Source: a virus
Taxonomy: Duplodnaviria > Heunggongvirae > Uroviricota > Caudoviricetes
Length of the DNA: 64,000 bases
Reading direction: 5' to 3' (one strand)
IMG/VR virus record: IMGVR_UViG_2737471993_000002
Part shown: positions 37,452 through 38,552 of the stretch, one piece after another
How positions within the stretch are numbered: position 1 is the stretch's first letter
Layout of the letters: each line of letters begins with the position of its first letter
Notes under the pieces: model-generated
What the model was told of the DNA's origin: nothing
What the model saw: the letters and a program-made list of their open reading frames with translations, nothing else
Database searches by the model: none
Made by a program: the position numbers and the translations under genes

Positions 37452-37573
37452 CACAACGTTGAGGCCATTACATTTTTATCAATTCTAAGGTTCTATTCAC
37501 AGAGATACCGGCGAGCGTTGATATGTAACATGTTGGGCAAACATTCAATCGGAGTAGTGGCCTCAACGTTGTG
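37452..37573. repeat. long hairpin: 16-bp perfect inverted repeat with ~90-nt spacer
   Basis: CACAACGTTGAGGCCA at 37452-37467 and its exact reverse complement at 37558-37573; the spacer contains further small palindromes. Confidence 0.6.
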
Positions 37574-37839
37574 AAGACAGGATTGTTGTGTAGGTTTAAC
37601 CACTGTTGCCATTGGTGCCTGTTTTCACAACAAATGATTCCATACATCACATTGTATAAATTACAAAGTAGGTGCTGTCCTCAGAAACATCATCTACTTA
37701 AAGATTTTGCCTTCTACTATTGAGCGAAGTCGAAAGCGTCTGGCACTAACGAAAAGTGCAAGTAGCGGTGCGTTTCCTGGCAGAAACTAAACCGTCGCGA
37801 TTGGCACTGTTGAGTAATAAATACTGGCAGTGCCGAATT

Positions 37840-37914
37840 GATGGTGTAGCTCAGCGGTAGAGCAGTTGGCTGTTAACCAACTGGTCGGTGGTTCGAATCC
37901 ACCCACCATCGCCA
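37840..37914 (+). tRNA. tRNA-Asn (anticodon GTT)
   Basis: Acceptor stem GATGGTG/CACCATC, anticodon loop CTGTTAA, T-arm GGTTCGAATCC, encoded CCA. Confidence 0.85.
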
Positions 37915-37919
37915 ATTTA

Positions 37920-38006
37920 GGGGAGTTAGTCCGTAGAGGTAGCGGTGTAGACTGTAAATCTACTGTCATTGCGACTCGGGTGGTTCGACTCCATCACTCC
38001 CCACCA
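37920..38006 (+). tRNA. tRNA-Tyr (anticodon GTA), long variable arm
   Basis: Acceptor stem GGGGAGT/ACTCCCC, anticodon loop ACTGTAAATCT region with GTA, T-arm GGTTCGACTCC, encoded CCA. Confidence 0.85.
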
Positions 38007-38010
38007 AATT

Positions 38011-38086
38011 GCCGGTTTAGCTCAGTTGGTAGAGCGCCTGCCTTGTAAGCAGGATGTCAGCGGTTCGAGTCCGTTAACCGGCACCA
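38011..38086 (+). tRNA. tRNA-Thr (anticodon TGT)
   Basis: Acceptor stem GCCGGTT/AACCGGC, anticodon stem CCTGC/GCAGG with loop CTTGTAA, T-arm GGTTCGAGTCC, encoded CCA. Confidence 0.8.
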
Positions 38087-38310
38087 ATACAACGATAAGA
38101 TCATTACGGTTAATCGTCGTTCATGTGCACAATGACTGGTCGAAAGGTAGTGATCTTACCGTTGTGGTGGATTCGCAGACTGATGCGATAGCTTTCTTGG
38201 ATGTTAGGGAAATGCGGCCGCAAATCTTCCCTTTCGCGAGCGGTGATCGTCCGTAGTCCTAATTGGCTGCACCGTATGCCGGAGATTCAGTACCGGCCAC
38301 CACAATGGCC

Positions 38311-38397
38311 GGAGAGTAGGGAGCATGGTGCTCAAGCGGTCTTGAAAACCGTCCCATTGCGCAAGCGATGATGGTTCGATTCCATTACTCTCCGCCA
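38311..38397 (+). tRNA. tRNA-Ser (anticodon TGA), type II
   Basis: Acceptor stem GGAGAGT/ACTCTCC, anticodon loop CTTGAAA, long variable arm, T-arm GGTTCGATTCC, encoded CCA. Confidence 0.8.
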
Positions 38398-38400
38398 GAC

Positions 38401-38475
38401 ACAGCGTTGAGCGGTTTGGCCTTTTAATCAACCAGATTAAGACTCCGCTAACATAAACCAGACCGCTCAACGCTG
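38401..38475. repeat. long hairpin: 15-bp perfect inverted repeat with 45-nt spacer, related to the 37452 element
   Basis: ACAGCGTTGAGCGGT at 38401-38415 and its reverse complement at 38461-38475; arms resemble the CACAACGTTGAGGCCA arms upstream of the tRNAs. Confidence 0.6.
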
Positions 38476-38552
38476 TGATAGACAATTACGGCAGACGTAC
38501 TTAACCATAGCTTGCTAACATCCTAGCAACACTTTTTTTCAGCGCAAAATTC

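Follow-up and report, generated by a model that had tools for sequence, protein, structure and literature searches.

Long hairpins beside the tRNA genes of an SSU5-like phage-plasmid: candidate punctuation and processing signals in a tRNA operon headed by a tmRNA-like tag template

How the tRNAs of a phage are excised from their precursor, and why a dedicated family of hairpins should be needed there, are questions raised by a 1.5-kb stretch of the viral record IMGVR_UViG_2737471993_000002, analysed here over 64,000 nucleotides (the window). The window is an E. coli phage-plasmid of the SSU5/pHCM2 type, in which a first-pass annotation had noticed four tRNA genes between two related long hairpins, here named HP1 and HP2. 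These hairpins and two further members of their family are read as punctuation and processing signals in a plus-strand operon of tRNAs and a unit resembling transfer-messenger RNA (tmRNA), and also as recombination joints. A probability of about 0.5 is given to this reading, which rests on comparative sequence analysis. Phage tRNA genes are usually annotated singly and the DNA around them is ignored; here the tRNAs appear to be embedded in a long, strongly conserved, modular RNA found in a large, medically common group of phage-plasmids that includes SSU5, S. Typhi pHCM2, Y. pestis pMT1, Klebsiella plasmids and P1, P7 and D6.

The region is 99% identical to E. coli plasmids of about 106-111 kb, with further matches in Escherichia phages CMS-2020a and Cyrano, Salmonella phage SSU5, S. 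Typhi pHCM2, plasmids of Klebsiella, Enterobacter and Cronobacter, and Y. pestis pMT1. Across 37062-38590 the tRNAs are the sole annotation in annotated relatives, between a small open reading frame (ORF) ending at 37061 and a gene near 38593, so that hairpins and tRNAs sit in a 1.5-kb non-coding stretch, directly downstream of replication genes (helicase, ligase). The comparison set comprised 12 annotated relatives and 78 more loci retrieved with the upstream 96-amino-acid protein as query, three from a genome collection and 75 from a viral collection; single loci are cited below by L numbers. Ranked by length, the top three interrupted inverted repeats of the window all fall inside the non-coding stretch. 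Four hairpins in the window constitute the long-hairpin (LH) family, whose members carry CACAAC at the 5' foot and GUUGUG at the 3' foot:

37292..37380, plus strand: LH-a, the family member nearest the 5' end; arms 37292-37314 and 37358-37380, 23 nt, 91% complementary, fold z = -5.6.
37452..37573, plus strand: LH-b, the same as HP1; 20-bp stem and 82-nt interior; 21 distinct orthologous versions.
38084..38170, plus strand: LH-c, the third hairpin of the family; arms 38084-38107 and 38147-38170, 24 nt, 83% complementary.
38400..38477, plus strand: LH-d, the same as HP2; 20-bp stem and 38-nt interior with the conserved motif AAGACUCCGC(U/A)AA.

HP1 pairs 37452-37471 with 37554-37573 and HP2 pairs 38400-38419 with 38458-38477, each over 20 bp that include one U.G. 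The first-pass annotation was right that both exist and are related, their arms sharing the foot CACARCGTTGAG, which within the 64-kb window is found at the four HP1/HP2 arms only; it had given the stems as 15-16 bp, and they prove to be 20 bp long, with interiors of 82 and 38 nt. Both folds are markedly stable relative to shuffled sequences (z = -6.1 for HP1 and -9.7 for HP2, with none of 200 shuffles equally stable). The arms of LH-a and LH-c (CACAACGGTAAGATCA, GTAACAGAATGGGCGG) are akin to those of HP1 (CACAACGTTGAGGCCA), and orthologous hairpins of the family have stems of 18-24 bp. The observation that no T-run follows HP1 or HP2 is borne out by their 3' flanks, AAGACAGG and ATAGACAA, and a terminator scan flags neither as an intrinsic terminator. 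Within the interior of HP2 (38420-38457), the loop motif is kept in nearly all relatives and the rest is variable.

Both hairpins are kept in almost all relatives, in Escherichia, Salmonella, Klebsiella, Enterobacter, Cronobacter and Yersinia. The first-pass annotation had staked its reading on conservation of the arms, and these are indeed conserved across genera with compensatory changes. Over the 21 distinct versions of HP1, 321 of 336 cells of the outer stem are Watson-Crick pairs; four pairs are altered on both sides, in 1, 6, 2 and 8 of 26 sequences, with replacements such as GGCC to GACC/GGTC, GATC/GATC or AGCC/GGCT. For HP2, two of 19 pairs are altered on both sides, each in 6 of 17 sequences, as in the change from GCGTTGAGCGG to GCGCTGAACGG. 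The strand on which pairing is selected emerges from the wider family: when about 230 hairpins are oriented by their operon, G.U outnumbers A.C by 248 to 84 on the operon strand, against 96 to 187 on the other strand. Since the excess is confined to the operon strand, pairing is selected in the plus single strand, most simply in a transcript. The same count pooled over orthologues of HP1, HP2, LH-a and LH-c is too weak to decide the strand.

The position of the hairpins relative to the tRNAs is equally regular. ARAGORN calls exactly the four tRNAs listed by the first-pass annotation, all on the plus strand:

37840-37914, plus strand: tRNA-Asn(GTT), with encoded CCA.
37920-38006, plus strand: tRNA-Tyr(GTA), with encoded CCA.
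38011-38086, plus strand: tRNA-Thr(TGT), with encoded CCA.
38311-38397, plus strand: tRNA-Ser(TGA), atypical, with encoded CCA; its best Rfam model is tRNA-Sec.

Rfam agrees with ARAGORN on three of the four. The Asn, Tyr and Thr genes form a run (37840..38086) with spacers of 5 and 4 nt. Between the end of each tRNA run or structured unit and the foot of the next long hairpin there are 0-3 nt. In all SSU5-like and P1-like loci, a hairpin whose stem measures 19-24 bp begins 0-2 nt after the final tRNA of a run. Counted over all tRNA contexts, such a hairpin stands just after 34 of 115 tRNAs that are last in their run, as against 4 of 69 tRNAs with another tRNA behind them and 40 of 600 positions chosen at random. 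At the junctions themselves, the CCA of tRNA-Ser is followed by GA and then HP2, the CCA of tRNA-Asn in pHCM2 by A and then HP2, and the first bases of LH-c are the CCA of tRNA-Thr. Orthologues of LH-c stand directly after tRNA-Asn in Cronobacter and Klebsiella plasmids. HP1 and LH-a obey the same rule with respect to structured units that are not tRNAs. As regards tRNA-Ser(UGA) itself, the tRNA-Sec model scores 46.6 bits against a gathering score of 47, the D-loop is very small, and the annotators of D6 remarked that tRNAscan-SE would not assign an amino acid to the tRNA-Ser.

Hairpins and tRNAs are framed by a promoter-like start and a terminator, with structured spacers between them:

37072..37105, plus strand: putative operon start; palindrome ATAAGTA-N6-TACTTAT (37072-37091) over a weak -35, and a -10-like TATAAG (37100-37105).
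37381..37451, plus strand: U2, a structured spacer of about 70 nt; a 10-bp helix and a 6-bp minihelix with 7-nt loop (37432-37450), 1 nt before HP1.
37574..37839, plus strand: U3, the structured spacer before tRNA-Asn; an alternative helix, an invariant 13-mer and a long-range pair.
38510..38575, plus strand: unit end; a weak hairpin with T7 (38512-38539), then the intrinsic terminator GGGGCTTCGGCCCC with T6 (38556-38575).

The motif at the head, a putative promoter, is conserved in relatives; the intrinsic terminator, about 80 nt past HP2, is likewise conserved. Over the 730 nt ahead of tRNA-Asn, conservation exceeds that of the flanking protein, whose identity is 60-99%; the leading 400 nt are almost invariant, and this leader folds into a series of covarying helices that includes one long-range pair. 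In U2, RNAalifold places pairs at columns 320-358 and 363-381, with a compensatory GC to AU change, and the minihelix together with the following hairpin is kept in P7 at 2789-2908. The alternative helix of U3 (37568-37581/37618-37631) shares the 3' foot of HP1; CGUCUG at about 37739-37744 pairs over a long range with CAGAACG in the tag-template unit U1, described below (columns 172-178 / 686-691), with compensatory changes in Klebsiella; and a hairpin of U3 ends 5 nt ahead of tRNA-Asn. Taken as a whole, 37062-38590 looks like a single plus-strand stable-RNA operon. Rfam over the region, at gathering score and at E<=10, returned only tRNAs and faint matches to tmRNA tag regions. Two short motifs of the frame recur elsewhere. 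The palindrome ATAAGTA-N6-TACTTAT has 20 copies in the window with at most three mismatches, where 2.2 are expected (for example at 18117, 33550 and 61089), and looks like a phage-wide operator or promoter motif. The 13-mer of U3, AATGATTCCATAC, occurs five times exactly (36621-36633, 37633-37645, 40396-40408 and, on the minus strand, 40416-40428 and 46447-46459); two of the copies together form a perfect palindrome that lies upstream of the gene for the integrase, the leader copy is invariant in all relatives, and the motif is probably a protein-binding site.

The reading as processing sites is preferred on four grounds taken together: the compensated pairing, the G.U excess on the plus strand, the position 0-3 nt after CCA, and the containment of the hairpins in one unit from promoter to terminator. 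Helices of about 20 bp in a precursor RNA would act as punctuation, insulating the folding of adjacent units from one another, and their stem or foot would offer a double-stranded target to a host endonuclease. The first candidate would be RNase III, cutting inside the stem, and the second an RNase P-type cut at the 5' foot, with the hairpin in place of a downstream tRNA. Either cut would leave the tRNA or unit ahead of it with a free 3' end, which exonucleases could then trim back to the CCA. RNase III is put first because of stem length, together with precedents near other stable RNAs: the E. coli enzyme requires stems of about the length of the family (18-24 bp), and HP1 and HP2 each offer at least 20 bp of nearly perfect double-stranded RNA with one G.U. 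RNase P is put second because the hairpin starts where the next tRNA would start in a tRNA-tRNA junction, and because the C4 RNA of P1 is an RNase P substrate that is not a tRNA.

Several points weigh against this account. Transcription and cleavage at the locus are both inferred. Maturation of tRNA 3' ends in E. coli normally proceeds via RNase E, without hairpins of this kind. The foot CACAAC/GUUGUG exceeds what RNase III is known to need, so that a factor with sequence specificity, or alternative pairings, may be involved. Such pairings can be drawn: GUUGUGGUG is able to pair forward with CACCACAAC, and more generally the 3' foot GUUGUG(GUG) can pair with the CAC(CAC)AAC box that closes the next unit, so that alternative folds exist and the local hairpin may not be the sole functional one. 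A C.A mismatch is present on the plus strand in the HP2 of several diverged relatives. Finally, T-arms inside some members of the family in other phages suggest a tRNA-like origin or role in preference to that of a plain processing stem.

A forward pairing of this type is available in the gap between tRNA-Thr and tRNA-Ser, which is taken up by LH-c and one further unit:

38171..38310, plus strand: U4, the remainder of the Thr-Ser gap; fold z = -3.2; small hairpins 38173-38188 and 38278-38297, with a central hairpin between them.

In U4, CACCACAAU at 38298-38306 is complementary to GUUGUGGUG at the 3' foot of LH-c. The segment 38149-38310 is 95.6% identical to phages P7 and D6, the match extending to 38420, and modules of the U4 type occur in tandem in Klebsiella phage KlebP_265 and singly in the lambdoid phage mEp460. 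The first-pass annotation had recognised no T-arm in the gap and had thought that it might contain a degenerate tRNA or small RNA. Neither ARAGORN nor Rfam at E<=10 found a tRNA in 38087-38310, so the gap is not filled by further tRNAs either. Conservation and folding mark it instead as a conserved structured module of LH-c plus small hairpins, neither a degenerate tRNA nor an empty spacer.

The operon is headed by a unit of a different kind. The operon as a whole, and above all this unit, which P1-like and SSU5-like phage-plasmids have in common, is a more surprising result than the hairpins:

37110..37291, plus strand: U1, the tmRNA-like tag-template unit, recognised by weak Rfam matches to tmRNA tag regions, codon pattern and covariation.

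After a conserved 5' segment (GUUUUCG..GCGAC), U1 contains the tag reading frame 37154-37186, GCA AAC GAA GAA GUC UAU CUG GCA GUA GCC UAA (ANEEVYLAVA*), preceded by the resume context AAAUACAAGU|GCA and followed by a second UAA at 37187-37189. It is precisely this tag region that the tmRNA models of Rfam align, at 14-26 bits against gathering scores of 47-84 and with E values of 0.0015-1.5 (the best 0.0015 to 0.04) in small searches; U1 falls below the gathering score of every Rfam tmRNA model tried. Across loci the tag has 20 DNA versions and 13 peptides, invariably of 10 codons plus UAA, among them ANEDTYLAVA, ANDNQYLAVA, ANEEMYLAVA, ANDEQFLAVA and, in P1, ANDDLMMVAA, and codons vary synonymously (UAU/UAC, GUC/GUG, ACG/ACA, GCC/GCU). 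A conventional ORF is excluded by indels of 1-2 nt just upstream of the tag, and the +1 frame across the tag (QTKKSIWQ) can be set aside, since it has no conserved start codon (AUG, GUG or CUG) and is truncated in P7. What is shared with tmRNA is thus a tag frame that opens at a resume codon and has no start codon, with a conserved context ahead of it and a hydrophobic end, ..A[AV]A. Downstream lie hairpins A (37201-37223) and B (37237-37253) and a variable hairpin with compensatory changes (37267-37290). Covariation among 18 diverse relatives supports two post-tag hairpins and two H-type pseudoknots: 93% of cells are paired, compared with 88% in shuffles (0 of 500 as high) and 33-49% when the structures are slid, and ten pairs change on both sides. 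The pseudoknots are paired in 86-100% of cells in relatives, with 3 and 2 compensatory pairs; in the window itself the first could plausibly form, and a long-range helix takes the place of the second.

U1 appears to be a tmRNA-like tag-template unit, apparently undescribed. It is called tmRNA-like and not tmRNA because no tRNA-like domain has been assigned to it: ARAGORN, run on the window and eight relatives, called no tmRNA, and ARAGORN, Rfam and manual search found no acceptor stem with G3.U70, T-arm or 3' CCA. Candidate acceptors before every CCA of the leader, from the 5' end of U1 against the arms of HP1, and from the upstream hairpin GGGCGUU of P7 or the minihelix plus CACCA were all tried and rejected, none giving a 7-bp stem with G3.U70 and a free CCA.

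The unit extends well beyond the SSU5 type. In P7 and D6 it stands first in the tRNA region, past the ban operator, which is under C1 control; according to the P7 record, transcription of the tRNAs is controlled by Op(ban). It is also present in Klebsiella phage KlebP_265 and some 55 other viral contigs. Homologues of LH-a follow it in P7 and D6. Long hairpins of the family and U4-type modules are found in the phages that have the tag unit (P7, D6, KlebP_265 and other contigs) and in the lambdoid mEp460. In L205 (2950-3160), L128, L166, L223 and L136 a canonical T-arm of the GGTTCGAATCC type lies directly 5' of the 3' arm of a long hairpin, which stands after the tag unit in L205 and L128 and before it in L166, L223 and L136. 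ARAGORN called no tRNA on these T-arm-enclosing hairpins of other phage contigs. A T-arm inside hairpins adjacent to the tag is the main lead to what might be a hidden tRNA-like domain.

It is conceivable, if unlikely, that the operon holds a phage version of tmRNA, with U1 as its mRNA-like domain and the long hairpins as its tRNA-like part, either functional or a remnant. Because all 5' arms are alike and all 3' arms are alike, neighbouring arms could swap partners, giving an inner P2-like helix around U1 and an outer acceptor-like helix in the topology of tmRNA. The tag and both pseudoknots directly adjoin long hairpins; the order of T-arm and then 3' arm, for example in ATGGGTTCGAGTCCCAT and GGTAGAGGGTTCGAATCCCTACC, is that of the T-arm and acceptor strand of tmRNA; and the 3' arm of the hairpin upstream of U1 ends in ..CUCUUUCCA right before the unit in L128, L134 and L166. 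Set against this, the ARAGORN searches of the window and eight relatives gave no tmRNA, no G3.U70 acceptor stem or free 3' CCA was found, the four long hairpins of the window are without a T-arm, perfect local helices of 20 bp should win over swapped pairing, and the same hairpins also follow ordinary tRNAs distant from the tag unit. In its general form, that P1-like, SSU5-like and other enterobacterial phages encode a new tmRNA form whose long hairpins are closed or partner-swapping tRNA-like and P2 helices, the proposal is given a small chance. If it were true, the phage would run, redirect or jam trans-translation during infection, and the hairpins beside tRNAs would be copies of the same structural module, re-used as punctuation.

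The hairpins also bear on how the tRNA set varies. The first-pass annotation had suggested that HP1 and HP2 might border a mobile tRNA cassette. This is not supported, since no relative has gained or lost the block between them as a whole: the hairpins are constant, and the tRNAs between them number 0, 1, 2, 3 or 4. No tRNA lies between them in L070, Asn alone in SSU5 and pHCM2, Asn and Ser in a Klebsiella plasmid and L053, and Asn, Thr and Ser or Asn, Tyr, Thr and Ser in others; the interval between Thr and Ser ranges from 8 to 668 nt. Among the loci compared, it is the tRNA filling that varies, within a frame of hairpins that stays fixed. In Y. pestis pMT1 (L008) the capsule locus has taken the place of the operon's tRNA part, with the tag unit and HP1 retained: caf1R, the regulator of the F1 capsule (1891-2925, opposite strand), ends about 14 nt past the HP1 orthologue. 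One orthologue of tRNA-Asn (37840-37914), at L066:4317-4391, has the anticodon GTG (His), and the leader of L066 contains a 260-nt insertion.

The breakpoints of this variation fall at the hairpins. Homology to P7 and D6 starts in the 3' arm of LH-c (38149) and stops at the end of the 5' arm of HP2 (38420), and L011 lacks exactly LH-c plus U4, the segment between two CACAAC boxes. Since the feet are near-identical repeats, they are the joints where tRNA modules come and go and pass between SSU5-like and P1-like phage-plasmids; such exchange, evident in the breakpoints, is taken as a by-product of the feet. A stronger version makes this the function itself, the hairpins being recombination sites at the DNA level (as folded single strands, cruciforms or linker repeats) that assemble tRNA modules as cassettes. 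That otherwise collinear relatives differ in tRNA content always between hairpins, that indel and mosaic breakpoints lie in hairpin arms or CACAAC boxes, and that the hairpin family recurs in the tRNA regions of unrelated phage types all speak for it. It is nevertheless thought improbable. The asymmetry of G.U over A.C is strand-specific and fits a transcript; HP1 lies in the leader with no tRNA on either side; no dedicated recombinase covaries with the hairpins, the nearest integrase being 2 kb off behind other genes; and ordinary homologous recombination already predicts breakpoints at repeats. Nor do the arms match the integron attC core: against RYYYAAC ... GTTRRRY, the feet CACAAC(G)/(C)GTTGTG fail, GTTGTG violating RRR and ACACAAC violating YYY.

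Two further accounts fare worse. Protein-binding palindromes, which the first-pass annotation had also proposed, or elements of a replication origin would suit hairpins just downstream of a helicase-ligase replication module, and an 8-bp palindrome, CAACGTTG, lies in the HP1 arm with CAGCGCTG in the HP2 arm of the pHCM2 type. Yet 20 bp of intramolecular pairing are kept by covariation around interiors varying from 38 to 85 nt, the strand asymmetry favours RNA, and the locus is a chain of covarying helices with long-range pairs and not AT-rich iteron DNA; binding palindromes are accordingly not favoured, and this account is considered very unlikely. The last account sees the hairpins as miniature inverted-repeat transposable elements of 122 and 78 bp, inserted beside tRNA genes and ending in terminal inverted repeats of 20 bp, much as Correia or ERIC elements do at a similar size. 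It can be dismissed almost entirely, since dispersed copies and target-site duplications are required whereas a single locus per genome is observed (median one place per genome in 777 E. coli genomes, 808 of 821 places being on plasmids), the foot motif is nowhere else in the window, positions are orthologous across genera with compensatory evolution, and no target-site duplication was seen.

Beyond the operon, an AT-rich ORF for 444 amino acids (38593-39927, minus strand) lies immediately past the terminator, in a variable accessory-gene slot that in relatives holds an insertion sequence (IS) element, other hypothetical genes or the caf locus. At 49991-50409 on the minus strand this phage-plasmid carries a full-length cspA thermoregulator 5' untranslated region (RF01766, 185.7 bits).

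Read as punctuation and processing signals whose feet double as joints, the hairpins would account for the shuffling of tRNA sets between unrelated phage-plasmids. The tag template raises a question of its own, namely the role of such a template, with no recognisable tRNA-like domain, in P1 and other classic phages. Tagging of proteins is one option and imitation or titration of host ribosome rescue another; the template could also be a relic. A search of the literature on phage tRNA hairpins, P1 transcriptomes and tmRNA-like RNA in phages turned up nothing relevant, and in published small RNA (sRNA) lists for Y. pestis the pMT1 sRNAs sR082 and sR083 map outside this locus.

Among known systems, tmRNA (ssrA, including its two-piece permuted form) is the obvious comparison for U1, which has the context UAAAU|GCA AAC GA and H-type pseudoknots after the tag. 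The tag follows AN[DE][DEN]x[YFM][LM][AVM][AV]A plus UAA, 10 codons; that of E. coli ssrA is ANDENYALAA in the context AAUAGUC|GCA. Unlike tmRNA, U1 heads a phage tRNA operon and has no tRNA-like domain, acceptor stem or CCA assigned to it. In an exhaustive 2014 survey of RefSeq phages and plasmids, ssrA was confined to mycobacteriophages, Bacillus phage G and DS6A, with none in enterobacterial phages or plasmids (PMC4131195). The prophage sRNA STnc100/PasD (RF02076; bioRxiv 10.64898/2026.05.13.724894) may be related to the spacer units, and not to the hairpins. Its model pairs UGGUG just after the 3' foot of a hairpin with CACCA at the end of the unit; it has no match in the window, reaches 43 bits against a gathering score of 47 in P7 (L013, 3247-3362, just past the hairpin after tRNA-Ser), and 20 bits in L205. 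With the Rfam families ROOL and GOLLD the locus shares the character of a large, ornate, covarying non-coding RNA adjoining phage tRNA genes, and it differs from them in having no Rfam match at E<=10, in its modular units separated by hairpins and in its tag reading frame. In the tRNA cluster of T4, the tRNAs are co-transcribed with two stable RNAs, species 1 and 2, which likewise makes a phage tRNA operon with further small, stable, structured RNAs released by processing; to our knowledge, T4 has no tag template or hairpin family. The closest parallels to the hairpins themselves are the RNase III stems near stable RNAs, at the flanks of 16S and 23S rRNA, downstream of metY (metY-nusA-infB) and in the T4 tRNA cluster. 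Like these, the long hairpins are helices of about 20 bp beside tRNA ends in what would be a polycistronic stable-RNA precursor, and lack a U-run; unlike these, they are local hairpins with interiors of 38-85 nt, share the conserved foot CACAAC/GUUGUG and form a family repeated across phage groups.

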